A stretch of DNA of 63,330 nt, filler included, from Dirinaria sp. TL-2023a (GCA_051941275.1; 34 parts of 34 records of this genome joined end to end with filler, not necessarily neighbours in it); one strand, 5' to 3'. Positions 6,067 through 53,315 are shown, counted from the first letter of the whole stretch. The notes: a model not told the origin generated them from the sequence alone. Made by a program: numbers and translations.

Positions 6067-6454
6067 TATAAGGTCGTATGCGCCGATTACCCGTCGACGC
6101 AGTACTTGTGTGAAAGACGTGGCAGTGTAATAGATTATATGACTACCTGATACTGTAGTTTCTGCTAGAACTAATCACTAAGAATCTCTCTCGAAAGAGT
6201 GAGTGATTCTTTATACTTAACCGCGAGCGTTAACATTGTCTCATCGTGACGAGTCTCGCGCTGACGAGTCACGAGCGCTCGTAGACACAATACTCTATAA
6301 ACGTCAATCGCTCACTGACTCTTAATTAGTCTCGAGATTCAATCTTTCGACGCTGACTTTTAAACGACGTTAGTCATGCTTTAGACCTCGAAGAATTGTC
6401 TCTGAGCACTCTTGACTATCAAGCGACGCTAGTCTGCATTGATCAATATATATC
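6067..6454 (+). mobile_element. LTR family A, hypermutated copy lacking the last ~25 nt
   Basis: Colinear with the intact copy at 52903-53315, differing almost only by C->T/G->A. Confidence 0.92.
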
Positions 6455-6867
6455 TGTAACAGTGATATCTGATACATTGATATATATTAATCAATGCAGA
6501 CTAGCGTCGTTTGGCAGTCGAGAATACTCAGAGACAATTCTTCGAGATCTGAAACATGATTAACGTCGTCTAGAAATCAGCGTCGAAAGACTGAATCTCG
6601 AGACTGACTAAAAATCAGTGAGCAGTTGACGTTTATAAAGCATTGTGTCTACGAGCGCTCGTGACTCGTCAGCGCGAGACTCGTCATGATGAGGCAATAT
6701 TGACGCTCGCGATTAAGTATAGAGAATCATTCACTCTTTCGAGAGAGGGTCCTTAGTGATTAGTTCTAGCAGAAACTAGAGTATCAGATAGTCGTATAAT
6801 CTATTACACTGCCACGTCTTTCACATAAGTACTGCGTCGACGGATAACCGACGCATACGACCTTACA
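6455..6867 (-). mobile_element. LTR family A, full-length hypermutated copy, inverted
   Basis: TGTAACAG...CCTTACA, 413 nt, reverse complement of 52903-53315. Flanks ATATC/CACGA give no TSD. Confidence 0.92.
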
Positions 6868-6937
6868 CACGATAATATTTCTCGTTCGATGTTGATTCTG
6901 CGTTTTCTGTCGAGTTTGCATTATCGTAACAGTTATC

Positions 6938-7466
6938 TCAATCATCAAATAAATTTTTTCGTAACGTAACGTTTAATTGTTCTTTAGATATCGCGTTTCT
7001 AATTCGATAATTTTTTGCGAAATGATCTGATTTGTCACATGAATAACACGTTTTGTTAATTTTATCTTGTTTAGCTCTGAGATTTTTCTTTTTGCGTTCG
7101 ATAGAATTCAATTTTATAAACATAATCTCATAATAAGACTGTGATTTCTTTTTGTCGAAATTTTTTTTTTCGATCGTTTTTAACGCGTTTATATATAAAG
7201 CCATTAATTTTTTCTCGTGATTCGTTGTCGAAACGTTTTTTCATGACTCGTTCGTACAGTTTGTCGTCAAAATCGATGACAATCTCGATCAGTTTTTCAA
7301 GAGATTCGTATTCTCGTTTATCGCGCATAAATTCATTCTTGATCGTATTCTTGAGTTCGCGTTTAAACATAATTTGCAGTGTCACGTGATCTTATTTCGT
7401 GAGTTTCGCGTATTTCTAAAATCGCGTCGCATAATTCGAAGCTAATTTAGTTTGTTTGAGATGCCG
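6938..7466 (-). pseudogene. Ty3/gypsy gag remnant with zinc knuckle
   Basis: ASNYATRF*KYAKLTK*DHVTLQIMFKRELKNTIKNEFMR resembles retrotransposon gag. CYSCDKSDHFAKNY is a degraded CxxCGKPGHFxxxC knuckle. Stops and a frameshift present. Confidence 0.85.
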
Positions 7467-8002
7467 AGTAATACGGCATCTCAAACAAACTAAATTAGCT
7501 TCGAATTANNNNNNNNNNNNNNNNNNNNNNNNNNNNNNNNNNNNNNNNNNNNTTAATTAATTAANNNNNNNNNNNNNNNNNNNNNNNNNNNNNNNNNNNN
7601 NNNNNNNNGTAGGATTTTTTTTTTTTTTTTTTTTTTGTTGTTTTTGTTGAGGGTTTTCCCCTCCAGGATTCCCTTCATTTGATTGTGAGGCGGGGCAGCG
7701 GTATAAAGTATATATCTTATACAAAAGAAGACAGAAAACATTTATGCGATATTAATAATTTTTGGGGAGATTTGATCGATTGGTGAATAAGCTGGGGATT
7801 TCTATACTTTGCTATGCTAAGCGGTTCTATTTCTTGGGACTGACAGCTGATGATGCTAAGCGCTACACTCAATGAGCATGCCAGTTCCGCGGTTTTCTTA
7901 TCCATCGACCATTGCCAAAGCAAACGATGCCACCAACACCTTCCATTTCCACTCGTGCACGGGATTTCTGGTGAGATAGCCTCTTCCTTCCCTGTATCGA
8001 AA

Positions 8003-9404: not shown

Positions 9405-9504
9405 NNNNNNNNNNNNNNNNNNNNNNNNNNNNNNNNNNNNNNNNNNNNTTAATTAATTAANNNNNNNNNNNNNNNNNNNNNNNNNNNNNNNNNNNNNNNN
9501 NNNN

Positions 9505-9806
9505 TTTGGAACTCGTACAATTGCAAAACGAGGTAAGGGGTTTGATGCTTTGTGTAATGTCAGGACCGGTGCAGAATGTATGATCTATGCAGGTGCTATC
9601 AACTAAATACACAAAGCATGAAGAAGAAAAGAAATCTATGAACTGGAACCGGACATAATATGGATGTGTGGGCGTTGAACCCTGATCGGCCGGACCGACC
9701 ACCACTCCGGATGCGCTAACCCCGATCAGGTCAAAACTCAATATCACACACAAAAACCTTATAGAAAATGACCCGGGTAACAACAGTGAGAGCCAGGCTC
9801 GTAACA
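9505..9806. mobile_element. LTR family D, largely unmutated, truncated at contig start
   Basis: Colinear with 53589-53901; ends ...CTCGTAACA; CC/GG retained. Confidence 0.82.
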
Positions 9807-11300
9807 AGAAAATGCAGTACTCACGTCAGAGAAAAAATACTATTTGATGAAGAATCTCACAATATTTTAACAAATTCTGAATAAGATCAGATCAGACACA
9901 GCATCTGTCTCGACTCAAAAGATTAACACGATTATCGAACGAGAGCGACAACAAAACTTCGACAGTAAATTCGAAAAAGATAATAACGTATTTCGAGAAT
10001 TGAAAAATCAAGAATTCGTTCAAACGAGAATTACGAACAAACTTGAAAAAGTTCTAAACAGCGATGCGACTCAGAAACGAGAAATTTCGAGACATAATAC
10101 ATTAGTATTGAATCGAGAAGATACAATCGTGCAGAAACGAACGATATGTTGCGAACATCACTGCTGAATGTATCAGCAGAAAAAATACAACAATACGATC
10201 AATGAATTAATGTATGACGCAATCGACGACATAAAATTGCTCACGAAACAGCGTTATGAGAATAAAGCATATTGATTAACATGTATAACGTGTGCATCAC
10301 AAGAGATATATCGTCAACAAGAATACGAAAATTGAGCGACTCGACACACGATAAACAAGTTACAACGCGCAGTATAGAAAGAACAATTCGAACATTTCGA
10401 CATCGCAGCAACAAGATATTACGATAGAGAATGTGTAACACGTCAACAAGAAAAAATGGAACACGCGAGTGTATATTGATCAGATTATTACGACGACGCA
10501 TGCATGACTTACTATAACGGAAAATACAAAGTCAACTGATTCTCGCGTGAGTCAAAACAAAAGAACTCGAGAAAAAACAAAACATCTCAGTAAAGAACGT
10601 ACTGAGAGAGTGCAATATAACAGTTCAGAAACAGAATAGTGCAACACAGTATATTTACACTTTAAAGACGTCAATATAAATTTAAAAAAAAACGATCAAC
10701 GACAATGATCGATTTAGACGCAACAGAGAACTTTATAACAGAACATCTGACAGAGCAGCACGAGTTCGCTACTCAGACAAAAAATGACGTCTACGATCTA
10801 ATAACAGTCGACGAATAGCTATTGATAAATAATAAAAAAAGAGTAAATAAAGAGATAAAATCACTCATGACAATTATTCAACAACATCGTGAGAAATTAA
10901 TCTTTGATCTTATGAGCATGATCAATCACGATATTGTATTGAGAATATTTTGATATTAAAGAAATATAATCTCAGCATCGATTAAGAGAAAAGAGTACTC
11001 AAATTCGAGCGATGTGAATGCGTAATCACAACTTAGTTTATGCATCGACAGAAAACGATAACAGATGAGAAAACTATTAAATGCGAGTTAACAACTTCGA
11101 ATAAGAATGACTCAAAGAGATTCGACTCGATAAATATCAACAAAAACTAGTAGAATCAACAGATTAGAGTTCAGAAAAAAAGTAACGCATTTTCGAAATA
11201 TCATAAAAATACGATTAAGAAAAATGAATCTTCACGCAGATGTTAGATATCTATCAGCAGTGAGAGCATCTGTTTTATGAAAAGAAAAACAGTAAAATTT
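9807..11300 (+). pseudogene. Ty3/gypsy gag-protease remnant
   Basis: From ~10702: TMIDLDATENFI (from AMIDSGATGNFI) ... HDIVLRIF* ... NLSID*EKRVLKFERCEC, a retropepsin pattern. Upstream HASVY*SDYYDDAC motif. Very few CC/GG. Confidence 0.85.
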
Positions 11301-11400
11301 NNNNNNNNNNNNNNNNNNNNNNNNNNNNNNNNNNNNNNNNNNNNTTAATTAATTAANNNNNNNNNNNNNNNNNNNNNNNNNNNNNNNNNNNNNNNNNNNN

Positions 11401-12145
11401 CAAACCCCCCATCCCCACTCTCCAACTCCTCAGCGATCCAATCCGCGCAATCCTCCAGAAAGGTATTATACCGGCCCGCATTCGCCAAGATTGTAACCAA
11501 CGGTCCCAAACCCGGGATCCAATCGACGCCCCACCCTGCAAACCCAGCCGGCGTATCCTTCTGCGCCAGGAGCGGATTACCCCTTTCCGGCACCTCTTCG
11601 GGGATGGATTTGTTTTTGGGGTTCATGACGCTGGGACAGAAGATGGACCATTCCAAGCCCGCTTCCTTGGAAGAAGAAGTAGGAGGAGGAGGGGGCAGAG
11701 AAGAAAGATACGAGAACGTCTGTTCATGTTCCACGAACAGCGGAAAATATCTCGCGATCCGTGTCCCGGGGAAGGAAGGGTAATCGAGCACGGTCATGCC
11801 GCCTAAAAACCAAGCTCGGATCCGCAACCCAGAGTCCAGACACCCCTGCGCCACGGCGCGGATGATGTGCTGCATTTTCGGGGCCTGGAAAGGTAGAACG
11901 GAGGCTTGGCCTGCGGCGTTGATGAGCGCGTTGCAGGCATATGTTTTCAGGGTCTCGGCGATCGTGGAAGAGGAGCTGGCGTCGCCTGTGACGATGGAGA
12001 CTTTTGAGAGGAGCGGTGAAGGGATCAGGGAGCGGAGTTTTGACTCTGAGCGGACAAGCACGGTGACGGTGTGGGAGTGGGCGAGGAGCGCGGGGAGAAG
12101 GCGCGAACCGACGTTTCCCGTCGCGCCGAGGAGGAGGACGCGCAT
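11401..12145 (-). CDS. NAD(P)-binding Rossmann protein (atypical SDR / flavin-reductase-like), 3'-truncated
   Basis: MRVLLLGATGNVGSRLL...VLVRS...GDA...INAAG; about 248 aa open to the contig edge. Confidence 0.85.
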
Positions 12146-13291
12146 TTTTGGGGCTTATTGCGGAGGAGAAGGAGAAGGAGGTGGTGATGCTGCTGTTTGG
12201 GGGTCAATTGGAGGTTTTTGGAGGTGGAGAGTAGTATGTGCGATACGGTAGAGCGAGTGGGTTGGTGGTATATATCCCCACCAAGATCCATAGTGCCCAG
12301 CGCCCGAGAGGCCCTCAATATCGAACCGGGTTTAGGATTGCGCCGCCGGCGCCGCGCGGTTCAGTGGTGTTTGCTGTATCCGTTGTCGTCGGTGATCACG
12401 AATCGGCGGCTCGGATGAATTCTTAGCTTCGATGACTAAAATCGGCGATATTTCGTGGTTCATGCGGCCGTAGCCCGTGACGCCAGAGGCGCTGCTAGGC
12501 GGATGACTAATAGACTCGTCAGCTAAGGTAGTTCTCAACGACAGCTCACGCAGATGCAGATCAGAATCCGATTGCAATATTGAAAAAGATTATCTCCGCC
12601 ACCCGACATTCAGAGAAATTCGAATATCCACAATTCAAATTCTCTGAGCAAGGCCGATACCCCTTTACTGCAATACCTGCCTGCTATATTACAGATCCAC
12701 ACCTACTAACATCCTTCACCTCGCTGTATTGTACATCTTGCCTGTCCTTTCATTTTTTTTTTTTTTTCTTCTTTTTTTAAAAACTCAGTACTCTGCTCTG
12801 CTCGCTCCTTGTTCTTCTTCCGTGTCGTGACATTATTGATGGATTTGGGCTTCCACTCTAGCTCTCCCATTCCATCGCGCTACAAAATTGAATGTCAAAG
12901 AACATGCTCAAGAGGAGAGTAGTATGTGTATTCGATATCAACGATTGAGAAACAAATCTTTCGCATCGTAAATCATTCAAGCTCCAACTGCACTCAGCGA
13001 AAACCAATTATTAATCAAATGCGTTCAATTTACCATGAGCATTACTCGGAAATCGAAATTATGCAAAGAGGGGAGGGAAGGAATCAGTCCACGCTCTCCA
13101 GTATATACCTCATCAAGAGCTGTTCCAGCAGAGAGGGAAAGTGGGGGGGGTGGGAAAAAAACATATATCCTCGATGAAAAGAAGTCCACTCNNNNNNNNN
13201 NNNNNNNNNNNNNNNNNNNNNNNNNNNNNNNNNNNTTAATTAATTAANNNNNNNNNNNNNNNNNNNNNNNNNNNNNNNNNNNNNNNNNNNN

Positions 13292-14751
13292 AGTTGATCT
13301 CAAGCGTCTTGCTGCAATTGCTTCTTAGTGACTTCAAATATGATGACATAGTTGACTTGGCGGTATTTCTGTCGAAGCTGACGTTCTTCGTCTTGGCTGA
13401 GTGCGTTAATCAGCTTATTCTTGAATTCTTTCATGATCTCTTTCTTCAGGTGCTTGATGATATCTGATTCGCATTTGACATATCTGCAGAGATGCTCTTT
13501 CAGCATTTTGAAAACAATGAAGACGAGGAGAGATGATTCTTTGTGAGAAGTTGAGGTTGCTTTGCTTGAGTCAGGTGGTGCTTCAATGATATCGACTTCC
13601 GTGACTTTAACGGGGCCTGAGCTCAGAAGTTTCAAGAAAAATCTTGCTATTCTCACTGCTACTGTTTTCTTCTTCATAATCGTTTGTGTCAAGTTGAATA
13701 TGACTATCTCTGTCTGCATCAGCTCGCGTCGTATTGCTTCTTCTGTAAGTGTGAGAGAGTCGATAAGAAGTCGTATCTGTCGACGATGTTCTTCGTCGAT
13801 TATCTGAGGTTTCGAAATTGTCATCAAAGCACTGATGATCGTGCTTCTTTCAACTGTCACTTTTGATTCGAGATCTTTTGTGGTTTTCAGGACAGTGTTA
13901 GCTCTATCAACCAAATTTGTAAGGAATTCTTTTATCTGTAACTTGTAGTATCCCTTTTTCTGATGAGGCTGATATCTTAATTGATTTGCTTCATCTAGTA
14001 ATTGTGGAAAGAGCTGCTGCTTCAAGCTCAAAGAGAGATCCTCAATTGTAGTCAAGTTCATGAAATGTGCTTCGTCGCTGAAGATAGAAATTTGTCGAAG
14101 TTTCTTTCTCATAGTGTTTCAAAAGATTTTTTGTGATAATTTGTCGTCCTTATCAAGTGTGATTTCGTAGATCTTTTCATCATCAGTGTTGATTATGTGA
14201 GATAGTGAAAGATGAAAAAAATCGACTTTCTTTTGTTTAAGATGAGACGTTGCGTAAATATAATTGAGTGTTGTTTCTGATTGAAAGTTCAACGATAGAC
14301 TTCTCTTGATCTCGCTTGACTTCTGCTTTTTTCTGAAAATTTTTGTAGATTTTTCTAGAGCGATTTCAGCTCTTCTTTTATTTTTGCTTGCAGTTGTTTC
14401 TGAGATGATCTTCTTCTTTGAAACACTGCTCTCTTTTTTGCTTCTCTCGCTTGCTTGCTCTTCTAACTTTTCGATCATAACTTTCTTTGAATTCTTTGCA
14501 GAAGTGATTGCTTCAACTGTAGAGATTGAGAATCTCGAAACAGTCTGACGATTTGATGCTTTGCTTTTCTCTTTTGCTTTTTCAGTAATTGACATCATGA
14601 GTGCTTCGAGTGTCTTGAAGAATTGAGAGATTGTCATCGCTGCAAAATTACTGTCTTCGTTTTCGATCGTCTCATCGATGCTTGAATCTGTTTTCATCTG
14701 AGCATTCAACAATGATGTGTAAATGAACTGCGATCTCTCGTCTGAAGACAT
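13292..14751 (-). pseudogene. Hypermutated long ORF of unknown function, probably from a mobile element
   Basis: ORFs 14119-14751 and 13300-14112 are in frame, separated by a single TGA (KIF*NTMRK). Gly, Pro and Trp are depleted except in patches. Confidence 0.6.
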
Positions 14752-15081
14752 GATTGTTCAAAAGTGAGTAATAAAGTGAGATTTTCGATTAAAATAAGTG
14801 AGTTTTGAGATGATTTTCTTCAACAAATTTGATGTAGTTGTTCTCACTAAAAAAGTGAGATATTAAGTGACTTCAATCTCACTAAACAAGTGAGACATTC
14901 AGTGTCTTTATCTCACTCTTTTAGTGAGGACAATTACATCAAATTTGTTGAAGAAGATCATTTCAAAACTCACTTGTTTTCATCGAAAACTTTACTTTAT
15001 TACTCACTTTTGAATAATCATGTCTTCAGACGAGAGATCGCAGTTCATTAACACATCATTGTTGAATGCTCAGATGAAAGC
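14690..15081. repeat. Imperfect inverted repeat centred at ~14886 with three CTCACT-N5-AGTGAG palindromes
   Basis: Both arms encode a divergent MSSDERSQFI start (ATG at 14751 minus, 15020 plus). Palindromes at 14843-14859, 14878-14894 and 14912-14928. Confidence 0.9.
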
Positions 15082-15181
15082 NNNNNNNNNNNNNNNNNNN
15101 NNNNNNNNNNNNNNNNNNNNNNNNNTTAATTAATTAANNNNNNNNNNNNNNNNNNNNNNNNNNNNNNNNNNNNNNNNNNNN

Positions 15182-16550
15182 ACGATGATGTTTTTGATAT
15201 CTCGTTCTCGTCATCGTTTTTTTCAGCATCTCGTTTCTACGCGTTTACATCGTCGACTTCAGTCTTTTTTAAATTCTTTTCTCAAACATCGTCGCTCAGC
15301 GAAATTGTTTCTGAAATCACGAATGAGAACATCGCGATATTCTCATCACTACACATTGCGCTGAGTTTATACTTTGAGAGATGCGAAGAATCGAGATCGA
15401 AATACGTTAAATTACAAGAGATCTTCGAATTGTTTTTGCAGAAAAGACGACAGACACAATTCTTCGCTCACTCTAAAGAGTCGAAAATGAATAACATAAA
15501 AACGTTTTCTTTGAAGCTGAACACTCTGAAACGTCAGATACGTCGTCACATATCTCTGCTTCAGTTGATGCGAAAGATTTTATCGATCACGATTGAGAAA
15601 CAGCTCTCTTTAGTCGCTCGAAAGAAGAGTGATCGACGACAGATTTTGAATCGATTTTTCTGACAATATTGATATGACTCTATGAATTTAATACGCACGA
15701 TTCTATCGATCATCAAATTACAAAAAAAGATACATTTCGAAATGACAATATACGTGAATCAATTTATCAAACTCTGACATTCGAGTATCTGAGATTTCTT
15801 CATTCGTATCATTTTCGAAAACGTATGCTATACTCGACAAAAGAAACTGATTGTTTTCGAGAATATTGTTCACGTCAGTACTAATTCTTTTAATTCTCAA
15901 ATTTATATCATAAGAAGAGTTACATTTATCGATCGAGATCATCGTCACGAGACGAATTCGATGAATGAGATTGTTATCACTGTTCAGACAGTAGTTGATG
16001 ATGAACACGCGATTTTTCGAAATCGCAATTTTATTCATGAATTTAACGAGCTCTTTGTGCTGAAAAACGTTCTTATAAAACTCTCTTTTTATGAATTGAA
16101 TCGTCGTTTTTATGTTTATTTTGATCGCAAATACAACGATGATGATACTGATGACGAGAATCACGAAGATCTCTTTGTTAAAAGAGTGATAAATTTCTCA
16201 GAAATCAAATCACTGCGTCAATTGCATTTTATCAGAGAAAAGCTGAAGATTGAGTGTTTTGATCGTCGTCACGTTGAAAAATTCTTTATTAAATCTCATA
16301 AATCGTTGTCGTATTTTTTATTTATCGACGATTTTGCGATACATCGTAATATGTATCGAGTCTTAAAGATCTTTTACTTAATTTCAGTCTGTTTGAGTTT
16401 TGAAAAACGACGCAAGATCGTTAACGTATTCACGTTGACGTTGAGATCGCATGAAACTGATATTCAAATCGTGATGAAAGTTTTTATCAAATCTATTCGA
16501 CAATTGAATCGCGACGTTGATGAGATGATCATTAATGAAAAGACGCTCGC
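15182..16550 (+). pseudogene. Hypermutated putative DNA-transposase remnant (CACTA/CMC-like)
   Basis: LSYFLFIDDFAIHRNMYRVLKIFYLISVCLSFEKRRKIVNVFTLTLRSH back-mutates towards LFIDGF...YLIP..LP.E.R....F.LTLGPH, resembling the first catalytic-Asp region of CACTA-type transposases. Interrupted by an LTR at 16551. Confidence 0.5.
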
Positions 16551-16971
16551 TGTTACGACCCTGGAACACCTAAGTAGTAAGATAGGCATCAAGTCCCTTG
16601 ACTTGGTTTAGTTAGTCTTTTGGCGCTGCCGGGACTTTTATCATTGGGAAACCTATCTAATCAAGGTTGGGTCTTTAACATTAAGTCAAGTCAACCCGGT
16701 CGCAAAGTTCTGAGTTCGATTCCGCTCGAACGCTTGAAGGGTTGTTTCGGCGAGGACTTGTGGCTGAGAGCTTGTCTAAGCTCGGGGCGACTACTTAACC
16801 TTTTCACTTAAGGCGAACCTTCTACCCACACTCTGAGTGCTGAGCTTCGGGACGAAGCTCAGAAAGGGACCCGGGTAGTGGTACGACCCTGGAACACCGA
16901 AGTAGTAAGATAGACACCAAGTCCCTTGACTTGGTTTAGTTAGTCTTTTGGCGCTGCCGGGACTTTTACCA
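16551..16971 (+). mobile_element. Miniature LTR element (TRIM-like), LTR family C
   Basis: 130-nt LTR TGTTA...TAACA (16551-16680), 198-nt non-coding interior ending AGAAAGGGACCCGGGTAG, second LTR from 16879 to the contig end. Confidence 0.8.
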
Positions 16972-19750: not shown

Positions 19751-20106
19751 CCTGGTGAGGTCGGGGCCCAGGTTTCCTGTCTTCTGAAAACACACATACA
19801 CACTCGCAATTTGAGATATCCCCGCAACTTTTCCGAGGCTAAATCCTTTCATCTTCTGGATCCACTACTTTTGTCCTCTGATTTTATCCCGCACGAGAGT
19901 CTGGCGTCTCTACGCATTTCGTTCTGAGAATACATGGAATACATGGAATACCCTGCATGTGCGATTATAAGCTCATATTTCCAGGTTCTTTCATGGGCGT
20001 TTGACAAAAGCCTCTTTTTATCTTACACGAGGAAAGGACATATATTCTAAAAGATCGTTTTCAAAGAACGCTACTAACTGTGGTTACTATGTACATTTAC
20101 ATAATC

Positions 20107-31434: not shown

Positions 31435-31941
31435 TCGTTAAAGATCACGTGGAGGTCTTGAAGCCATTCTAAATCAGCGTACAAGCGAGCGTTGGATTGA
31501 GTACTTCTACAAGGAGCTCGACGATCGTCAGATCCGCAACAAAGTTTCTTTGGCGCTGACTTTGACGAGAGAACGTTGTGCCAAAGCTTGTCACCATGTG
31601 CGGATTGTCATTGCTCACCGGTGAGTGTGTATGATGGTATGTTGTCACGGCATTACAGTTGACTGATCGAGGCTCGTCATTCGCTCGGCCCACCTTTTTA
31701 AATAGTGTGCACATATTTGACGCATTTAGCAGTGCTTCAAGTAGTTTACATGGCGATGGATATATATAGTACTTTATCGGCACCCGTTCGGCTTTCACAA
31801 ACGCTTAATTTATCTCTTGCTCCAGCACCGCCGTTGATATCGCATTAGGCTTTCTTTGCTCATTCACAAACTCCAGATATCGGCCGCGCTGCAGCGGCAC
31901 CAGTTTGCGCTGGAGGCAGCATTTGCAGATAATGTTTGTCT
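31435..31941 (-). repeat. 507-nt sequence shared, inverted, with 38880-39386
   Basis: About 96% identical by eye; both copies run to a contig end. Confidence 0.92.
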
Positions 31942-32202
31942 NNNNNNNNNNNNNNNNNNNNNNNNNNNNNNNNNNNNNNNNNNNNTTAATTAATTAANNN
32001 NNNNNNNNNNNNNNNNNNNNNNNNNNNNNNNNNNNNNNNNNCAGATAATAAACGTCGATCATTGTCTCGACGTATGTTTTAAATTCATATAAATCGATGA
32101 TCGCGATTTTCGATAAAAAGACAAATAAGTCAATGAAAAAAACGCGTCGTGCGCGCAATTTTAATCAAAATTCAAAATGCAACGACATGTTTAATCTGAT
32201 TC

Positions 32203-32436
32203 TGTCATGATGCTAAGTTGCACAGTTCTTTAGTCAAGCTTGTCAAGTCTTCTACGGGTCGCGTATGCGACTATAGGGGTTGCTAATGTTATATTTCAGG
32301 ACAACTTCATTCCTCTTTTTCTTTTCTTGTCTTTCGTCTTGTATAGTACTCAGTACATAGATTTAAGTTCATTTAATAATAAAACCTCGTTAATCTCTAT
32401 CTATGAATAGATCTCAGCTCAGCTCTTGATATTACA
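32203..32436 (+). mobile_element. Putative 5' LTR of a gypsy-like element
   Basis: TGTCAT...ATTACA segment directly upstream of a gag remnant. No second copy in the window. Confidence 0.45.
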
Positions 32437-32519
32437 AAAGATTTATAATTCTCACAACGCTTTCACGCGTTGAAATTCTCGCTGTTCGTATTTATCACGC
32501 GTATATAGTCATTATACGA

Positions 32520-33567
32520 ATCTCCGACTCAATAAAGCATCTCGAGAATTTTCTCGAAATCGAGCTGAGCGTCGATGAATTTGCTCAGCAAATAGCTCAA
32601 GACTCAGTTAAAGTTCTTCGTCAATTCAGAGAGCTTCAAAATCAATTTAATCATGCTCGTTTCAATGTCGATATCACGTCGTTTTCGTTTATTTCGTTTT
32701 TTTCGTTTTCTTCGTTCGTGATCTCACTCGACTCGCGATCAATGAGTATGATAACTCAGATGATAACTCAAACTTTTCAAAATCAATTTTCGCTCACGTA
32801 TGTCTCGTCTGTTATTAATCTCTTTTTTACGTCGACTGTCGCTCAAATTATCTTTATCGTTTTCAAATTCGAGAAACTTTCGAATATATCTGAGTATGAG
32901 AGAGACAAGAATCATTTAAACGCGTGAGAGCAAAATTTAATACAGCGCATAAATGTAAATCACGATCGCTATCTTATTAATCGCTTCAAAATCGTTTATG
33001 CTGAGTCTCGACTCACGATAAAAAAGAAGACTCATAATTTAATGAGTCAATATCGAGTAAATAATCTCTGTACACTGATCAGTTTCGTCGAATGACGTCA
33101 AAATCTTCATCATTGTTGTGAAAATTCTTTCGGGATCGAAGATGCTCGAAACTATCTTCGCGACATTTTTAAACAAGGCTCAACGAGCTTGACGAAATAT
33201 TATAATCTTTTTTATCAAAAGAAAAAACGTTTTCAGATGAAGAACGCTATTTTGATTGACTGCATGAAAAAAAATGTCAGTTACTTTATTCAGTTAGTCG
33301 TCATGTTCTGACGAACTCTCGATGACAAAAAATCATTTATTTTTCAACAATATGTTCAAATCTTTCGTGAGACGAATAAAGAATTACAGCAGCTCAAACG
33401 TCGTCAATCTCGTATCGTCGCAGTCGTTACGACTGCATTTGTCAAGCTCAAAATCATCATCATCTCAAGCAGCAATATTTTGAGAACAAAAAGTATCATC
33501 GCGATTTCGATGATTTCAGTCATTTCTGTCGTTTTCGTTTCGACTGACGATCTCATGAATTTGAGCT
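32520..33567 (+). pseudogene. Hypermutated retrotransposon gag
   Basis: KFEKLSNISEYERDKNHLNA* (from .SEKLPDIPEY.GD...L.AW), KIVYAESRL, and terminal DDLMNLS (from GDPMDLS). Confidence 0.75.
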
Positions 33568-33778
33568 TGTTAGGACCGATGCAGAGCAAGTCAATGCAGG
33601 TATAGTTAACTAAGGATATTATCACTAAGGAAGGAAAGAAGAAGAGAAGCTAGATACAATGGGGGTCCCAGATATATACGCGTGTGGGTGTCGCGTATCC
33701 CGATCGAGTTAGCGCATTACCCCTGAGAACCCTGGGAGGTGTTGCCCCAGGTAGTATACCAGGTGCATGCTCGTAACA
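33568..33778. mobile_element. Unmutated 211-nt LTR-like insertion (family E)
   Basis: TGTTAG...GTAACA ends and an abrupt switch to CC/GG-rich sequence right after the gag remnant. Flanks GAGCT/ATCAC give no TSD. Confidence 0.65.
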
Positions 33779-38879: not shown

Positions 38880-39386
38880 AGACAAACATTATCTGCAAAT
38901 GCTGCCTCCAGCGCAAACTGGTGCCGCTGCAGCACGGCCGATATCTGGAGTTGGTGAATGAGCAAAGAAAGCCTAATGCGATATCAACGGCGGTGCTGGA
39001 GCAAGAGATAAATTAAGCGTTTGTGAAAGCCGAACGGGTGCCGATAAAGTACTATATATATCCGTCGCCATGTAAACTACTTGAAGCACTGCTAAATGCG
39101 TCAAATATGTGCACACTATTTAAAAAGGTGGGCCGAGCGAATGACGAGCCTCGATCAGTCAACTGTAATGCCATGACCACATACCAATACACACACTCAC
39201 CGGTAAGCAATGACAATCCGCACACGGTGACAAGCTTTGGCACAACGTTCTCTCGTCAAAGTCAGCGCTAAAGAAACTTTGTTGCGGATCTGACGAGCGT
39301 CGAGCTCCTTGTAGGAGTACTCAATCGGACGCTCGCTTGTACGCTGATTTAGAAGGGCTTCATGAGCTCCACGTGATCTTTAACGA
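38880..39386 (+). repeat. Second copy of the 507-nt sequence at 31435-31941
   Basis: Direct comparison of the two copies. Confidence 0.92.
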
Positions 39387-39486
39387 NNNNNNNNNNNNNN
39401 NNNNNNNNNNNNNNNNNNNNNNNNNNNNNNTTAATTAATTAANNNNNNNNNNNNNNNNNNNNNNNNNNNNNNNNNNNNNNNNNNNN

Positions 39487-41240
39487 GAGACTCATTTCAT
39501 AAACACGTTGTCGCGTTTTAATCACTGTTGCGTGATGAATGTTTTGAGATCGTGATTTCGTTTTTTTATGACATTCAAATCATTTTATACAGTCGTCATG
39601 CTGAGAACTCGTTGCGTTTTAAAAAATTATTGAGATTTTTTGTTTGACGTGTTGATAATCAAACGCTCTAAAACGTTGTTCTTTATTTGTTTGTAGTTCG
39701 TCAGTTTTTTCTAAGTCATGTGATAGTTGATTTGTACGTATTGAATTCGAGAAAAATATTTCTCGATGATACGAGCGAAATGAAAAAGAATTTTAAAGAC
39801 ATGCGTTCTGCGCAGCATGCAGTGAGAGTATATTCGTTTCAGATTTCGATCTTTAGTCACATTATTCATTTTGTCGATCGTAATTCAAGATTTAACGATC
39901 TTCATAATTAGAATCAACTTGACTTCGAAATGATTAGAAGACAGCTCAAAAAGATTAACATTCTCGTTTAATTTAATCTTTTTCAGATATTCAGATGTTT
40001 ATTAATTCTCGTTCGCTGAGTTCTGTAACAGACTCAGATATTCGAGTACATTTTTTACGTCGTTAGAAATGAGGATTTCTGTCATCAGTATATAATGATC
40101 GAGTCTCAGTCATTGAATAATTTTAGATATGTCTGCGCTTATATTTTTGACGAAATGAGTCTCATCTATAACAACATTTCTAAACAGATCGTTGAGATTT
40201 GTTTTTCAGATTTCGTCAAGAATGTTTCGATCTAAAATATGTCTTTTTCTCAGTTTTTTCGTTCGTCACGCTGTAAAACTCTTGAGATCGTGTCTCTCAT
40301 TTCAAATGTGAGAAATTGTGATGATCAGCACGATCGCATTTTTCTTTTTCTTTTTATCGAAAATCTCGTGATCGTTGTAAAACGTCTTTACGAGTTTTTT
40401 TTTCGACTTTATTCTCTTCGATTGCGATCTTTTATCGCCGTGATACAGTCAGAGATCAAATACATCGAGAAAAACTCGATCAATTGTTTTAATTCATTGA
40501 GTTATGAGATGAATGAGAAGAATTATGAGAGTGAGTTTCGTCATGAGTCGACAATTTTTCGAAAATCGTTTTCGATCGTTTAGCGACTGAAAAAAGATTG
40601 TCAGCGCGCACGAACATATGAAGATTTCAGCGTCACAGAATACATGAGAAATCTTTCACGAACATAATTGAGAGATACTCATCATTAAAAAATAAATTAA
40701 AATCTCTCAAATCTTTCTCAGACTCATATAATCGACGAGAATACATTCTCGTAAATAAGAGTGATTTTTCATATTGAGAAGAAAATTTACAGCGACAGAT
40801 TGTCAGAATTCGAGAGCTGTGAACAAGATCATTTTTGAAATTCGATAAACTGTTTTATCAATGTCGATTCAGAGAATGCTTAGACGTGTGCATGACTCTT
40901 TCAAATTCTCACGCTGAAAGTTGATGTTGTCAAAATACGACTCAATTTTGTCGAAATCGACGATCGTTTTCTAATCGAATGTTTAAAATATTATTGCATC
41001 TTGAGCGAAGAAGCTGTTGACATTCATCGATGCATGTCAGATTTTGACATCTTTTTTGATCGTGTTAGTCATTTTCTTTCGTTCTGAAATCATTTGCAAA
41101 ATAAATTTCACAGAACGATCTTTCGTCTGTCTAATCTGCTCAATCAGATAACATTTTCAATATCGAAATTGTAAATCTGAGATCTTGAAAATACATTTTA
41201 TAATCATTTTTTTTCGCATTTGTTGACGATCGTTTATTCG
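39487..41240 (-). pseudogene. Hypermutated SNF2-family helicase/ATPase gene fragment
   Basis: Motif I RECILVDYMSLRKI* (from RGCILADYMGLGKTW, ~40710-40750). Motif Ia KLTLIILLIHLITQ*IK (~40490-40540). Motif II VVIDETHFVKN (from DEAH, 40155-40166). Motif III ILMTEILISN (from LMTGTPI.N, ~40061-40090). Probable intron ending GCTGAC...CAG between I and Ia. Confidence 0.85.
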
Positions 41241-42377
41241 NNNNNNNNNNNNNNNNNNNNNNNNNNNNNNNNNNNNNNNNNNNNTTAATTAATTAANNNN
41301 NNNNNNNNNNNNNNNNNNNNNNNNNNNNNNNNNNNNNNNNTTCTAACAGGATGTGATATGAGACCACACGCTTCATCCAGTTGTAGACTATTAACCCTAA
41401 CCATTGAATAACTCACCCTTATGAAGCTTGATGTCTTCAGTTCGGAGGATACGACTAGGGGCATATTGACTCTTGCTAGAATAGACCACAACCACGGGCC
41501 GATACACTGGGATTCATCGCTATACCTAGCTGATCGCTGATTAGTTCAAGGACTGCGAATTTGCTCGACATATATACTTGCGCTACAAAATCATTTCTAG
41601 CATATCGTGAATATCATTCCAACCGAAGATCTTGATTGGTGTGAGCTCATCAAGGCTTGAAGCAGTTGGCGTTGCCCTTCATATTCATACAGATTATTTT
41701 TCTTCTTCTTCGACATAACTATTCGTACTCATTGCTGTTTCCGACGTCACCAATCCCTCAGGGAGTGAGTTCGTTTGCAGATGACGGCGAGTTGCGGATG
41801 CAAAGGATGCCGTTTTCTGCTGTGGGTTTAGATCGATGCACATAACCTCAATTTTGGGAGACCCCCCCCGGGGGTCACCCCCATTTATGGAGGAACCTCT
41901 ACGGCGTACTGCCTCAGCACGTACTCCCCATTCGTTCAGAATACACAGGGTTCGGTTACAAGGGGGCGGGGGAGGTTCTACTTTGAGGGCGACCTGAGAG
42001 TGCCCATGCCTGGTTTAGTCTCAATACGAATCTGAAAGATAGTGATTGATGGTGAAGATTCACTTCAGCCTTGAGATTGCACAGGGATGTGATGAGTAAA
42101 AGAGGGTGTGAATTATAATGGTCACTTTATTTGATGGCTGGATTTTATTTTCTGGTTTTTTGTGGTCAGAAGACGCCGGGTCGGCGACCACATTAGACTG
42201 TACATGATATAGGAGAAGGGAAAAGTGATGCACAGAGCGCTTGTGAAGAGAGCAGAACTTAGCTTTCAAATCGCTAGTTCATAGGTGTTATCAAAGCATC
42301 TATTCAGACCTACCAAAGCAAATGCTCACGAGGAGAGAGAATGACGCGGCAGTCAATAGAGGTAGCGTGCACCTTCT

Positions 42378-43229: not shown

Positions 43230-43428
43230 TGTCAGGGCCTGCACAGCGCTCAATAACATATGAGTGCTAGTAGACTAGAACACTAACTATGAAGAAGAAA
43301 AGGAAAGGAAATCTATCTACAGAAAGACTCAAATAGGAACCCGGAGCAATATCGGTCCGAGGGGACGCCAGACCTGATCATGTGACCTGATCATGTGACC
43401 TGACCTAAGGTGCTCCAGGTTCATGACA
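43230..43428 (-). mobile_element. LTR family B, full-length 199 nt, lightly mutated
   Basis: TGTCA...TGACA termini; reverse complement of 5710-5881; no TSD (TGTAA/GTCTT). Confidence 0.82.
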
Positions 43429-43636
43429 GTCTTCGAAACGACGCTGCAGCGTGAATCTAACGACATTGTATTTTTTAGCAGTAGTAGCAAGATTTGATAT
43501 CTTCTGCGATTTCAAATCATCAACTGCTACTAAGATAGCTTTATTATTGAACATTGTAGAGCTTTGCAAAGTTGAGAAGAACAAAATATTAGAAGTGCGC
43601 ATCAGGTGTCGATGCGTATAAGATGTCGAATTACGT
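43429..43636 (-). mobile_element. 5' end of a pogo/Fot1-like DNA transposon, truncated by the LTR
   Basis: TA|ACGTAATTCG... terminus, then from 43554 MFNNKAILVAVDDLKSQKISNLATTAKKYNVVRFTLQRRF, a psq-type HTH pattern. Confidence 0.7.
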
Positions 43637-43849
43637 TACTCATACGCTTTTCTTAATCCACAACTTTCGATCCTCAACGCCCAACACCCAACCCCCAACC
43701 AGAGAAATTTTTGCTCCTAAAACACTATTTTTAAAATAACTCAACAACGAAACGTGTAATTGACTTTATTGACGCGTCATTCGACTCGTCTAATTATTGC
43801 ATATTAGTCTGTGTGCGATAGTCACGATGACAAGATCTGATTGATCGTC

Positions 43850-44574
43850 AATGAGGCAAGACAAATCTGATATACGCGAGCATGACATAATGCTGCTTGT
43901 TAATACAAAAATTATACAGATCAGAGCAGAGCATAAAAACGTATCACAATCGACTATAAGAGCATGACTCAACGAGATAGTAGACTATCTGAAACGAGCA
44001 AAAGATTTTACAATGCAGTCAGAAGCAATGAAGATCATCAATCGATTGATTATTAAAATAGAACGCAGTCACGAAAGAATTGAGGAAAATACAACGATCA
44101 TACGCAGTCACATAGCAGAAATCGCAGCAACATCTGCTGCATTCTCATCGACGACTCTCATTGCTTTCAGAATCTGAGCAGCAGTGACAGCGAGCGCATC
44201 GTCATCGACGTCAAAATCTTTCATCAATAAAAATATCGAGATTATAGTTCGTCTAAACGATAGCAACGTCAAACAAAAGCTTAGAGATCAGAATGCAGAG
44301 CACATTGTAAACAGCGTCAACGAAATCATCGCGAAGAAGAATCTCACAGCGAAAAGCATCAGAGTAGTCAAGAAATTGCTCAACGAAGATATCGCTATAC
44401 ACACGATCAATAAAGAAGAAGCGAAAAAGTTTAAAAGCAATAACACATAAACTAAAGTGTTTGACAGCAAGATCAAAGCGATCATATAGACGTATGCGAT
44501 GATGATCATCGAGGTGAAGATCGATGAATGAAGCTTGAAAACGCCGAAATCGAGGACGATAGCAATGAAGAAGA
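43850..44574 (+). pseudogene. Hypermutated LINE (Tad-like) ORF1 remnant
   Basis: EIIVRLND...IRVVKKLLNEDIAIHTINKEEAKKF...*TKVF, from ..KLPSGDI......EA..L....W. Confidence 0.6.
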
Positions 44575-49419: not shown

Positions 49420-50469
49420 CTACCATCCCACGGAGCTAAAGTCAAAATCATCGAAGCCAGGAATTCCGAGGCCGATATCACCAGGGAATATTAGTGGCGT
49501 CAAGCTGTTGTCCGTATCGTTGGTGGCCAAAGCCTCGCCAGCCATATTTGAGGAATCCGGCTCTTGGTAAGTTGTGCTGCCACCTCCATGTCCACTTTCA
49601 CTCATTTTCGTATGAGGTTGGCCTTGTATCGCGGCTTTCAAGCCACTCACAATGCTTGAAATTGGTTGAAAAGTTTGTGTGATAGCCGATGGACTGGAGC
49701 ACAATCTTATTAAACGATCCAGTTGCTGTAAAGCCCGCTCTTTGAGCGCTTCATCCAACATCTGCCAGGGCCCCTTTAAAAGAAACACCGACGCAAATGC
49801 TAGCATCGTGTAAAAGTAAGATGGCAGATTTGAACATTTTTGTACTTCGCTCCATTGACAAAAATCCTCAAGGATCCAGAGCGCACTCTGTGCAGCAGAA
49901 TGAGCAATTCTGTCAATAGTCTTCGACGGATGTTGCCGGTTTGAGAAGTCTTGGACAGAGCCTCTGAATAAGTGCGAGAATAAACATAACTTGGCTGAAT
50001 GGAAGTACATATTTAGGACCGTTTGAGCGCCTTGGTCAAGATCAACTCTGGGTCTCAGCGTCTCTATCCACTTATAGCGCCAGCTCTCGTAAATCTCACT
50101 AAATTCCTCAAGCTCAGCAAGCCTGCTGTGGACGAAAGCGCTGTCCGTAGCAGCGCCAAAGCTGTCGAAAACTTGGGTGCTGATTGACCAGAGTTCCATC
50201 TGGCTGACGAGATTAAGGTCTGATGGCAGAGAAAAGTCGCTATCAAGCAGCGCCCTTGGAGATTTCAAGGTCTTGGTGTCGCGAGTCAGGGGAGGCCTTC
50301 CGTGGCTGAGAGAACAATGATGATCACAGATATAAACAATAAAGTGCAGACGAGTACGCTCATAGCATGATTTGTCCGTATGCGGCATTTTCGTGATACA
50401 TCGATGAAGGTTCAATTCTCCAGCAATGCGGACCGCTTCTCGTAGAATCAGTGACCACTTTTTACAGTG
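49420..50469 (-). CDS. C-terminal part of a fungal Zn2Cys6-type transcription factor (middle homology region)
   Basis: EAVRIAGELNLHR...ERTRLHFIVYICDHHCSLSHGRPPL...DLNLVSQMELW. The zinc cluster itself is not on the contig. Confidence 0.75.
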   Translation of the reverse strand, partial: HCKKWSLILREAVRIAGELNLHRCITKMPHTDKSCYERTRLHFIVYICDHHCSLSHGRPPLTRDTKTLKSPRALLDSDFSLPSDLNLVSQMELWSISTQVFDSFGAATDSAFVHSRLAELEEFSEIYESWRYKWIETLRPRVDLDQGAQTVLNMYFHSAKLCLFSHLFRGSVQDFSNRQHPSKTIDRIAHSAAQSALWILEDFCQWSEVQKCSNLPSYFYTMLAFASVFLLKGPWQMLDEALKERALQQLDRLIRLCSSPSAITQTFQPISSIVSGLKAAIQGQPHTKMSESGHGGGSTTYQEPDSSNMAGEALATNDTDNSLTPLIFPGDIGLGIPGFDDFDFSSVGW

Positions 50470-50569
50470 NNNNNNNNNNNNNNNNNNNNNNNNNNNNNNN
50501 NNNNNNNNNNNNNTTAATTAATTAANNNNNNNNNNNNNNNNNNNNNNNNNNNNNNNNNNNNNNNNNNNN

Positions 50570-52309
50570 CAAGAACTGAAGAGTGCGACTATCGCTGAAC
50601 TCCAACAGATCTTGACAACGTGCCAGAACACGTGTTCGTGTGATCTCCTCAAGCTTGTCTACTACCTTTGCGTGCTTTGAAGAGACATTGTCATCTCTTA
50701 AATCGAATAATGTGTCTTCTTCCGCAAAGTGTGCGACGTCACGAGCATACAGGTCAGTGGTCATCGCCTGGAGCTGTATAATGTACAAGCGCGCTGCCTG
50801 TCTGCTATACACCCTGTCTGCTCGATCCAATATGCGTCTAAAGAACTCCTCTAATTCTGTAGATAGCTCCTGTAGCCGAGTTCGTAATTCTTCCAAGGTA
50901 CCAAGATTTATCATACCTCTAAGCAGTGATCTTACCACTAAGAATACCCAGAGAAATACCCCAGAAGATCGCTCAACTATTTCTTGCATTGCCAAGTACT
51001 CGTCTTCAGTTACTATATTTAAGCGATTATATATCTGTTGGGTAAGCTGCTGGTGAGCGAACAGCCATATGTCGTGTTGACTGAGATCTTGGAGAATGAT
51101 TCTCCTTCCTTCATTGGCTCCAAAGAAGGTTTCGAAAACGTTCCATGGTCGACTCGCCATACATAGCTTTATCGACCCCGAAGTCGTCACATCCTTGACA
51201 AGAGGCAGGATGTCGAGGATCTCGCCCTCATACTCGTCCACCCCATCAATGAAGATAGAAAATCTCGCAGAATCACATGAATCTACCTTCAGTGTCTTCA
51301 ATGATTCGAGAAGCTCACTTTTCGTCCATGGTTCCATCCGACCCAGGTTCGATTCTGGATTCCATCGGTTTGGACAAAGATAAGGAATCAGATCTGGACG
51401 CTGTTTCAGAACGCATATCAGAAGGGATTGTAGTAATCTTTGTTGACTCTTCTGCATACTTGTGCCTGCGCTTCAGAAGAAGGAACCAGCAACGACTAAA
51501 TCCTTCCCCGGCGCCCATTTCCTCAATGCTTCAATAGTCTTCGGATGGTTGTAAAGATATTTCATTAACACGGATTTCCCGGATCCTGCTTTGCCGCTTA
51601 CCCAAAATACGTCCTTGTCGGTCTGAAGCCAGTCAAAGACATTTGAACAACTCTGCATTTTGTTCGTGTCTGTGGAACCTTCATGTAGCCAGTCGTAAGT
51701 TCAAGGATGAGGGTCTTTAATGTTTCTTCCCCTCTTCGAAATTCTGGGGTAATGTAGACTCGAAATGATGTCAACCTGCTTCTGCAAAGACAAGCTCTCC
51801 CCGTGCAATCTGACCAGCCAACCACGTTGTTCCGATAGAAGCTCTGCCTCAATGCTACTACCTTTATGATGGTTATGATTCTTGACGTTTTAAGAAAGAT
51901 TTCTGCTGATGTCATTTCGGAGTCCAGAAATGTCCTCACGAACGTTAATCCCTAAGCGATGATGACTTTCTAAAAGTTCATCGAGGGCTGTTCCCAGCTT
52001 AGCTTGGGCTTGGGAGATACTCGACTGGCTTCATCTGAGAAATTGCTGTCGATCCCTGAAGAAAGCATTAGCGAGGCAGAACCGAATAGTTTTGATATCT
52101 CACAATAAAAGCGATAAAAGTCGACTTGCAAGCTGTGGCCTGTACAAGGCTAGCATGTCCATGTATCCCTTGACTTGATTTGCTTTCCAAGCATTTTTCA
52201 AAGCCTGCCGAGCACTCCTTCATGCCTTTCGTTGGCCTTGGACTTTTAAATCTTCCAACACAATCAAGAGCTCCTGACCCAACTCCTGCAGGATTCCAAT
52301 AAGGGCATT
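50570..52309 (-). pseudogene. NACHT-NTPase (fungal NLR-like) gene with in-frame stops
   Basis: Walker A WVSGKAGSGKS, Walker B IFIDGVDE, ASRPW, SSGVFLWVFLVV, and a helical N-terminal domain. TGA at 52220 (RKA*RS), 51701 (HP*TYDW) and 51473 (FF*SAGT). Confidence 0.88.
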
Positions 52310-52409
52310 NNNNNNNNNNNNNNNNNNNNNNNNNNNNNNNNNNNNNNNNNNNNTTAATTAATTAANNNNNNNNNNNNNNNNNNNNNNNNNNNNNNNNNNN
52401 NNNNNNNNN

Positions 52410-52653
52410 ACGATACGCATGATCTTATTAACTGATTTACTCAGTCAGTTTCAGACGACTGCTCTTTCTTCGAATTCTTAGACTCTTAGAGTTCTCGCAT
52501 GAAGGATTTTCTAGTATTTTGAATAGAGAAAACTGCACGTAACAAGAAAAGAGTCGACGCAGCGCTGACGCGCCGCCGATATAAGTATATAGATCTCGCA
52601 TAGGCCCCTTGTGGGTGTTGAATCGAGTAAGAATTAAAAAAAAAAAAAAAAAA
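52410..52653 (+). mobile_element. Possible 3' end of a LINE with poly(A) tail
   Basis: CC/GG-poor sequence ending GAATCGAGTAAGAATT followed by A18, abutting other repeat DNA. Confidence 0.4.
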
Positions 52654-52902
52654 TGACAATATTATTGATCTCGTCGCGTTTTTTAACTAACTCATTTCAA
52701 TCGTCGACGCAATAAAAATAGTGTGACGTTTCAGACGATTCATTTTCATCGAGTTTAGCATCTCAACAAAGCGTTTGTTTACTCAGAATTGTAACTGTGA
52801 GATCGTATGTATATTTTTCGAAATGTTTGCTTTTTCTGACTCTACGAGAGCAGTCTTTGACATCATCGATACGCGTCGTTTTTTTGTCTTTTTCAATAAT
52901 TA

Positions 52903-53315
52903 TGTAAGGTCGTATGCGCCGGTTACCCGCCGACGCAGTAGTTGTGTGAAAGACGTGGCAGTGTAATAGATTATATGGCTACCTGATACTGTAGTTCCTG
53001 CTAGAACTAATCACTAAGGACCCCCCTCCGAAAGGGTGGGTGGTCCCCTATACTTAACCGCGAGCGTTAACATTGTCCCACCATGACGAGCCCCGCGCTG
53101 GCGGGTCACGAGCGCTCGTAGGCACAATGCCCTATAAGCGTCAACCGCTCACTGGCTCCTAGTTAGCCTCGGGATACAACCTTCCGACGCTGGCTCCTAG
53201 GCGGCGCTAGCCATGCTTTAGACCCCGAAGGATTGCCCCTGGGCACCCCCGGCTGCCAAGCGGCGCTAGCCTGCATTGGTCAATATATATCAATATATCA
53301 GGTATCACTGTTACA
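52903..53315 (+). mobile_element. Intact solo LTR, family A, with 5-bp TSD
   Basis: TGTAA...TTACA, 413 nt, flanked by AATTA at 52898-52902 and 53316-53320. GC-rich within CC/GG-depleted DNA. Confidence 0.95.

Follow-up and report, generated by a model that had tools for sequence, protein, structure and literature searches.

A CpC-centred C-to-T hypermutation footprint, probably of the RIP type, in transposon relics of the lichen fungus Dirinaria

A stretch of 63,330 nucleotides of DNA from Dirinaria sp. TL-2023a (GCA_051941275.1; 34 records joined end to end with filler), referred to below as the window, contains eight blocks in which the dinucleotides CC and GG have been almost completely purged. 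Comparison of intact and mutated copies of the same repeats indicates that the purge arose by C-to-T transition at the 5′ C of CpC. The footprint is probably best explained by hypermutation of the repeat-induced point mutation (RIP) type, confined to transposable elements (TEs), with the context hierarchy CpC (5′ C) >> CpT >= CpA >> CpG. The mutation type, its polarity and context, the action on both strands, the near-saturation and the sharp edges are evident at the level of sequence, as are the action on relics of both retrotransposons and DNA transposons and the escape of younger insertions and short repeat copies.

The footprint can be read base by base in one long terminal repeat (LTR) family, represented in the window by an intact solo LTR and two mutated copies:

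52903..53315, + strand: intact solo LTR, 413 bp, GC 0.55, CC+GG 70 observed against 63 expected
6067..6454, + strand: LTR copy A, hypermutated, truncated at LTR position 389
6455..6867, - strand: LTR copy B, hypermutated, full length, tail-to-tail with copy A

The solo LTR (TGTAAGG...GTTACA) displays both marks of its type, TG...CA termini and a 5-bp target-site duplication, the latter being a perfect AATTA at 52898-52902 and 53316-53320; its description as intact in an earlier note on this DNA is thus borne out. It sits within one of the purged blocks (block 7, see below), and its clean sequence inside purged DNA suggests a later insertion.

Alignment of copy A with the solo LTR gave 30 C>T and 25 G>A changes, two transversions (G>C and A>T) and one A>G, such that C:G>T:A transitions make up 55 of the 58 differences. 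The earlier note had proposed a CpC-specific, RIP-like system from a hand alignment of the same pair, and its counts (55 target changes, 2 transversions and 1 reverse transition, with 44, 7, 3 and 1 target changes at CpC, CpT, CpA and CpG, respectively) were reproduced exactly. When expressed per available site, the changes in copy A amount to 44/68 for CpC, 7/51 for CpT, 3/43 for CpA and 1/58 for CpG; the corresponding values for copy B, which the earlier note does not list, are 48/70, 10/53, 4/47 and 1/58. Both strands of copy A are affected, as had been claimed, with C>T and G>A changes interleaved along the sequence (31 runs against 28.3 expected). The base on the 5′ side of the mutated C in copy A is C in 20 cases, G in 20, A in nine and T in six. 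In the same comparison the TCA, TCG and TCT sites of the LTR were converted in 0/9, 0/10 and 0/4 cases, respectively, and an ultraviolet (UV)-type signature was rejected on this basis. CpC conversions are largely common to the two mutated copies (39 in both; A and B have five and eight of their own, respectively, and 16 sites escaped in both), which also have three non-target changes in common. Together, the common conversions and the common non-target changes suggest that the mutations of A and B were mostly inherited from one already mutated ancestor.

The same context preference was observed in other repeats of the window, for which the GC-richer copy of each pair was taken as the unmutated state. 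The following features are needed here:

9505..9806, + strand: short copy, unmutated, 302 bp; the repeat is mutated at 53600-53901; left edge of block 2
16553..16795, + strand: short repeat, unmutated, 243 bp; right edge of block 3; further copies elsewhere
31435..31941, + strand: inverted-repeat arm, 507 bp; partner at 38880-39386, 96.5% identical, 7 kb apart

CpC was changed at 25/36 sites between 9505-9806 and 53600-53901, at 12/30 between 16553-16795 and 44577-44826, and at 6/25 between 5710-5881 and 43230-43401, while changes in the reverse direction numbered only 0–2 per context in these three pairs. Pooling all five pairs, copies A and B included, gave 135/227 (59%) for CpC, 27/191 (14%) for CpT, 16/178 (9%) for CpA and 5/177 (3%) for CpG, and the CpC preference claimed earlier therefore survives per-site normalisation. 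Fisher's test of CpC versus the other contexts in the pooled pairs returned an odds ratio of 15 and p = 3e-48, both figures being weakened by the non-independence of LTR copies A and B; chance is excluded as the source of the CpC bias. Isolated CC dinucleotides (n = 112) had become TC in 77 cases, TT in five, CT in three and something else in three, with 24 unchanged. The 77 TC against three CT identify the 5′ C of CpC as the target, in line with the earlier note. A CC standing before a third C was converted less often (20/70), as would be expected if a change of the middle C takes the first one out of its CpC context.

In the lightly mutated copies the changes seem to favour one strand, with eight C>T against no G>A in one and two against 17 in the other, an observation rated as weak; the supply of sites in them is also skewed (18 CC against 7 GG, and 10 against 20). 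Strand clustering of the changes was not seen in the heavily mutated copies. The 507-bp inverted pair shows no CpC-biased differences (0/36 and 2/38), its arms being separated by 10 transitions and eight transversions. Each 507-bp arm adjoins a purged block, and an N mask hides one end of each. A short interspersed repeat family (∼ 90–250 bp) is present at 16551-16643, 16879-16971, 20106-20245 and 44577-44826; most of its copies are unmutated, the member at 44577-44826 being partly mutated.

At the scale of the whole window, purged blocks were delimited by sliding windows and by the lengths of CC/GG-free runs, with expected counts derived from the blocks' own base composition (a strand is given for block 8 only):

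5903..7464: purged block 1; CC+GG 19 against 113 expected; LTR copies A and B
9796..11300: purged block 2; CC+GG 3 against 83 expected
13186..16559: purged block 3; left part (13186-14147) partly purged, CC+GG 24 against 65 expected
31915..33573: purged block 4; CC+GG 13 against 96 expected
39369..41349: purged block 5; CC+GG 3 against 93 expected
43418..44513: purged block 6; CC+GG 16 against 80 expected
52304..54067: purged block 7; divided by the intact solo LTR
59654..61306, - strand: purged block 8; CC+GG 14 against 103 expected; Ty3-like pol relic

The eight blocks, each 1–3.4 kb in size and bounded by sharp edges against normal genes, comprise 13,565 nt, or 22% of the non-N window. They contain 113 CC+GG (56 CC and 57 GG) where 831 are expected, an observed/expected ratio (O/E) of 0.14, as opposed to 4954 against 5222 (O/E 0.95) in the remainder of the window. 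This agrees with the earlier statement that the genes keep normal CC/GG. The core of block 3 (14148-16559) has two CC+GG against 133 expected. Runs free of both dinucleotides are as long as 1631 nt, although a CC or GG should turn up roughly every 17 nt. The two arms of block 7 were counted separately (52304-52902, 10 against 32 expected; 53316-54067, 9 against 37). Block 6 is flanked by the lightly mutated short repeats 43230-43401 (CpC 6/25) and 44577-44826 (CpC 12/30).

Within the blocks TC+GA is raised (O/E 1.52) and so is CpG (O/E 1.77), whereas CpA is not depleted, since CpA+TpG has an O/E of 1.07 there and of 1.06 in the remainder of the window. GC content lies between 0.31 and 0.39. 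The thresholds used to diagnose RIP are TpA/ApT > 0.89 and (CpA+TpG)/(ApC+GpT) < 1.03, as quoted in one report (PMC3897900). The blocks, at 0.49–0.82 and 0.87–1.49, respectively, fail these canonical indices, and the prediction that standard indices would miss the signal was accordingly correct. With the attack limited to CC and GG, the relics remain CpG-rich, keep a GC of ∼ 33–38% and fail the indices based on CpA. The N masks of the window occur as paired 44-nt tracts with 12 nt between them, every ∼ 1.85 kb, and conceal several edges of blocks and ends of repeats (e.g. at 11301-11400, 15082-15181, 31942-32041 and 39387-39486).

A process restricted to CC>TC and GG>GA leaves a characteristic imprint on coding sequence: proline (CCN) and glycine (GGN) codons are lost, NCC codons become NTC, and stop codons arise only from TGG by conversion to TGA, such that long reading frames are kept. 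Block 8 conforms to this closely. Its longest open reading frame (ORF) under the standard code is 143 aa, but when TGA is read as Trp, a reading used only to trace the origin of the stops, 59705-61543 (- strand) is open for 612 codons, from N mask to N mask, with eight TGA codons. This reading can be aligned over 520 aa with an intact Ty3-like pol protein (P0149), at 52% identity and with the frame unbroken, and all seven of the TGA codons in the aligned range fall at Trp residues of P0149. At the 32 Pro positions of P0149 the relic has Ser 20 times and Leu four times, and at the 26 Gly positions it has Asp (7), Ser (6), Lys (3), Glu (2), Arg (2) and Asn (2). Thr is replaced by Ile at 11/32 positions and Ser by Phe at 8/38, while none of the 22 Gln positions has become a stop. 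The relic in block 3 is similar, with nine TGA, two TAA and no TAG among its in-frame stops, and with TGA read as Trp it is open for 493 aa (15130-16611, + strand) and 540 aa (13240-14862, - strand). A genuine TGA=Trp code in the host was rejected, as normal genes of the window read through with TGG for Trp under the standard code.

Six of the eight blocks overlap TE relics or repeats. In block 8 a Pfam scan placed RVT_1 at 60401-60832. In block 3, 15280-16518 (+ strand) aligns to residues 80-488 of a 1012-aa ORF in a metagenome locus, L003 (E = 2e-53). This ORF is intact, with a GC of 0.5, and although Pfam returned no match for it, its neighbours in the ESM Atlas are Plavaka/Transposase_21 clusters. 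The block 3 relic may thus derive from a Plavaka/Transposase_21-like protein, which is offered as a lead and not as a family assignment. Block 5 contains, at 39789-40445 (- strand), the remains of an SNF2-like ORF, the one found beside the Plavaka-like ORF in L003 and in a second metagenome locus, L001. The purge has thus reached a retroelement and a probable DNA transposon alike. Block 1 shows a weak gag-like zinc knuckle at 6938-7240 (- strand), and its segment 7227-7463 resembles an AT-rich repeat in locus L007. Block 2, which adjoins a normal NAD(P)-binding gene (11402-12154, - strand), resembles AT-rich repeats of L001 and L007 in translated comparison, and in block 7 the segment 53600-53901 is the mutated counterpart of the unmutated repeat copy at 9505-9806. 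Overall, blocks 1, 2, 3, 5 and 7 show translated or nucleotide similarity to repeats elsewhere; the Pfam scan returned no match above noise for most ORFs in the purged blocks.

The footprint is not confined to the window. Another public run, X1, with a small share (0.04), was compared at the level of contigs. These contigs contain more copies of the LTR family, two of them heavily changed (35 differences in 234 nt and 36 in 260 nt) and one near-intact (4 in 162); 19 of the 21 listed changes on the LTR are at CpC. In the purged flank, the X1 copies have C or G where the window has T or A. At the protein level, each of the nine homologues of the block 3 ORF has 0–1 Pro and 0–1 Gly, and of 17 homologues of the reverse transcriptase (RT) ORF, 11 have at most three Pro+Gly in all and six are normal. 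A profile search with the RT, exhaustive over 1.84 billion representatives, was analysed for its best 150 matches, among which the Pro+Gly content is below 2% in 71, 2–6% in eight and at least 6% in 71. The purged set contains 0.16% Pro and 0.17% Gly, with lengths of up to 1458 aa, yet its Trp content (1.44%) is close to that of the intact set (1.30%). Normal Trp in relatives free of Pro and Gly suggests that public gene calls of these sequences, P0148 among them, probably read TGA as Trp.

Relatives of the block 3 protein are encoded at seven metagenome loci, of which L003 and L005 are intact and L001, L002, L004, L006 and L007 are AT-rich. The five AT-rich loci have a GC of 0.13–0.35, a CC+GG O/E of mostly 0–0.3 and a CpG O/E of mostly 1.2–3; canonical RIP indices are mostly positive in them, beside the exhaustion of CC. 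The 9-kb copies in L001 and L002 are separated by 1433 transitions and 45 transversions, with difference rates of 29/41 at CpC, 385/747 at CpA, 333/901 at CpT and 280/812 at CpG. Among the sites that remain, CpC therefore has the highest difference rate. The L001/L002 genome thus combines CC exhaustion with a broader, canonical-looking component, whereas in the organism of the window CpC is attacked almost alone. Three side observations were made on these loci. A repeat element of at least 9 kb with SNF2-like and Plavaka-like ORFs has three or more copies; the records L002 and L004, although different, are 99.6% identical over 11.3 kb; and self-match offsets stepping by ∼ 145–155 bp at 13207-17836 of L007 suggest a ∼ 4.6-kb tandem satellite array in an AT-rich region.

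As the pattern also occurs in the X1 contigs, in metagenome contigs and in database proteins, it is not an artefact of one assembly. An origin in sequencing or assembly error, or in a native low-CC composition of the elements, has a practically negligible probability: it has in its favour only the general possibility and the regular N masks that hide a few junctions, whereas the window holds intact members of families whose other copies are mutated, the pattern recurs in the X1 contigs, in five metagenome loci and in 71 public protein clusters, and the substitutions fall on the Pro, Gly and Trp codons of intact relatives.

The reading that we favour, RIP-type hypermutation directed at CpC, would involve an enzymatic, regionally targeted C-to-T conversion of double-stranded DNA that strikes transposon relics. 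The enzyme would resemble a DNA methyltransferase, possibly as a homologue of RID or DIM-2, and would choose cytosines by the base on their 3′ side; it would act on duplications that exceed some minimum length, probably during the sexual cycle. A DNA methyltransferase (DNMT)-like ORF was not found among the 36 window ORFs scanned. The claim of the earlier note that the process is repeat-directed stands in so far as the damage appears confined to TE and repeat relics with sharp edges; it does not stand unmodified, since several repeats of 172–507 bp are unmutated and a condition of length or timing must be added.

Several observations weigh against this reading. The 507-bp inverted pair was left unmutated despite its 96.5% identity, as were the 413-bp solo LTR and the short copies at 9505-9806, 16553-16795 and 5710-5881; their escape is assumed to reflect a length threshold or a later origin. 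No TE or repeat identity was found for blocks 4 and 6 by the Pfam scan and similarity comparisons, and in block 1 the purge extends ∼ 165 nt past the start of copy A (5903-6066). Copies A and B represent largely one event, and the pooled counts thus overstate the number of independent events. Finally, the RT profile behind the 71, 8 and 71 split was built partly from purged sequences, which favours purged relatives.

The RIP of Neurospora crassa, which takes place premeiotically in the sexual cycle through a RID-dependent and a DIM-2/DIM-5-dependent pathway, the latter with HP1, is the closest known system. As here, it makes almost exclusively C:G>T:A changes, acts on both strands of the duplex with a preference set by the 3′ neighbour, stops sharply at gene borders, spares young and short copies and leaves AT-enriched TE relics. 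It is confined to repeated DNA and spares single-copy genes; in the window, six of eight blocks coincide with TE relics or repeats, and the genes have a CC+GG O/E of 0.95. CpC is the least preferred RIP context in N. crassa. In the window, by contrast, CpC is preferred and CpA is essentially spared (CpA+TpG O/E 1.07), no Gln position of 22 has become a stop, stops arise only from TGG, the indices are negative, GC falls only to ∼ 0.32–0.39 and CpG is relatively enriched. The CpA preference and positive indices that are absent here are typical of RIP and do not define it.

RIP has been reported in lichen fungi of the same or a neighbouring class, and the regions described are likewise TE-rich, low in GC and sharply bounded, with nested younger TEs of higher GC. 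Large RIP-affected regions (LRARs) in Xanthoria were found with TheRIPper and attributed to RIP (PMC13486527), regions of 10–20% GC in Cladonia rangiformis have the same attribution, with RID and DIM-2 homologues present (PMC12542154), and RIP is reported in Endocarpon pusillum (PMC3897900) and in Gyalolechia. Such reports lend indirect support to a RIP-type pathway here. They define RIP by GC or by CpA-based indices, which the blocks described here would fail. In the accessible text of PMC13486527 and PMC12542154 neither 'CpC' nor 'dinucleotide' occurs at all, and no dinucleotide preference is given; that of the OcculterCut paper likewise mentions neither CpC nor Lecanoromycetes. A report of CpC-preferring RIP was not found in a literature search that lay outside paywalled work (e.g. 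Clutterbuck 2011) and supplementary figures.

Slow decay, in which silenced TEs would carry CpC-biased 5-methylcytosine set by a maintenance or de novo methyltransferase and would lose it by spontaneous deamination to TpC over long times, has to be weighed against RIP-type action. C>T on both strands with a 3′-neighbour preference fits both equally well, young insertions, the solo LTR among them, carry no such damage, and partial damage exists, both in the lightly mutated copies (CpC 6/25 and 12/30) and in the eight of 150 relatives with intermediate Pro+Gly. We nevertheless regard slow decay as unlikely. In copy A, conversion has reached 44/68 CpC sites, yet there are only three non-target changes in 388 nt, which puts the CpC rate at more than 100 times the background; the Pro+Gly content of the relatives is strongly bimodal (71, 8 and 71 of the best 150); and relics with 0–3 CC/GG per 1.5–2.4 kb still show 30–52% identity to intact proteins without loss of frame.

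An enzyme of another class than RID and DIM-2, such as a double-strand DNA cytosine deaminase or a guanine-directed lesion pathway recruited to heterochromatin, is quite unlikely in our estimation. The conversion of GG to GA, which strikes the 3′ G, and the context order CpC > CpT > CpA > CpG resemble an O6-alkylguanine-type signature (a minor alternative), and the order of the pooled rates (CpC 59%, CpT 14%, CpA 9%, CpG 3%) is the reverse of that in N. crassa RIP. The CpA/CpT/CpG component that overlies CC exhaustion in the relatives would fit two separate activities, and a shared CpA preference of RIP-like defences, as stated in a 2025 kingdom-wide survey (PMC12543289), also speaks for a different enzyme. 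The window offers no sign of such an enzyme, however, and blocks of kilobase size that end sharply next to intact genes cannot be the work of a chemical mutagen acting diffusely. Moreover, known deaminases mostly read the 5′ neighbour, and the absence of conversion at TCA (0/9), TCG (0/10) and TCT (0/4) in the LTR rules out a signature of the UV or TC type.

Fungi offer a precedent for repeat-associated C>T hypermutation outside CpA: Hood in 2005 and Horns in 2012 reportedly described TpCpG-targeted hypermutation of TEs in Microbotryum and other Pucciniomycotina. That system belongs to another phylum and strikes the CpG within TCG, whereas here CpG is the most protected context (5/177 pooled, 1/58 in copy A), TCG sites were converted in 0/10 cases and CpG has an O/E of 1.77 in the blocks.

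Editing of retroelement cDNA before integration by an APOBEC-like single-strand deaminase is very improbable. The first case examined is an LTR element, and APOBEC3G acts on CC, deaminating its 3′ C in single-stranded minus-strand cDNA; the CC dinucleotide and the retroelement target are thus common to both. The product of APOBEC3G is a strand-pure GG>AG pattern with a 5′-neighbour preference. In copy A, 30 C>T and 25 G>A changes are interleaved on one strand (31 runs against 28.3 expected); among the 112 isolated CC dinucleotides the 5′ C was converted 77 times and the 3′ C three times, and a Plavaka-like DNA-transposon relic and non-LTR flanks have been purged as well.

Overall, RIP-type hypermutation at CpC probably accounts for the purged blocks, and a wider proposal can be made tentatively, with less than even confidence. 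The genome defence of Lecanoromycetes may possess a separable, CpC-specific C-to-T pathway, in which a RIP methyltransferase-like enzyme, either one of the two or a new one, would have a CpC preference. This pathway would act nearly alone in the organism of the window and on top of RIP of the CpA/CpT/CpG type in related lichen-associated genomes; it would be widespread in public data and invisible to CpA-based indices, with relics that pose as long Pro/Gly-free ORFs under TGA=Trp.

The footprint contradicts the assumption, expressed in the 2025 kingdom-wide survey, that RIP-like defences share a CpA preference (PMC12543289). A preference for CpC implies that index-based tools such as TheRIPper, and RIPCAL at its defaults, would miss part of the RIP in at least some lichen fungi. 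A context specificity that has shifted in nature also offers a way to ask which protein sets the target of RIP, and whether RID or DIM-2 is the mutator. The loss of Pro, Gly and Trp codons with few stops is a form of TE inactivation unlike that of canonical RIP, in that long pseudo-ORFs remain. Of the 150 nearest representatives in the database for one RT family, 71 are such Pro/Gly-free 'proteins', which would be a source of annotation and genetic-code artefacts in metagenomes.

The window itself is, to judge from its genes, nuclear DNA of a filamentous ascomycete of the lichen-forming Lecanoromycetes. Its long ORFs encode a GMC oxidoreductase, Aa_trans, GFO/IDH/MocA, ZFAND1-like, metallophosphoesterase, NACHT-type (NPHP3_N) and Fungal_trans proteins. 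A 415-aa exon of an amino-acid transporter (34107-35354) is 79–84% identical to lichen fungi and ∼ 70–73% identical to Dothideomycetes; the lichen-fungus assemblies matched by it include Heterodermia, Gallowayella, Xanthomendoza and Xanthoria. At 49420-51472 (- strand), NACHT-type (NPHP3_N) ORFs with a weak Fungal_trans match look like an NLR-like gene and have a mildly low CC+GG O/E of 0.68–0.79. Internal tandem or degenerate repeats lie in or beside ORFs at 18960-19415 (∼ 140-nt offsets) and 22866-23817 (units 69–84% identical), the former with a weak CpC excess (5/11).

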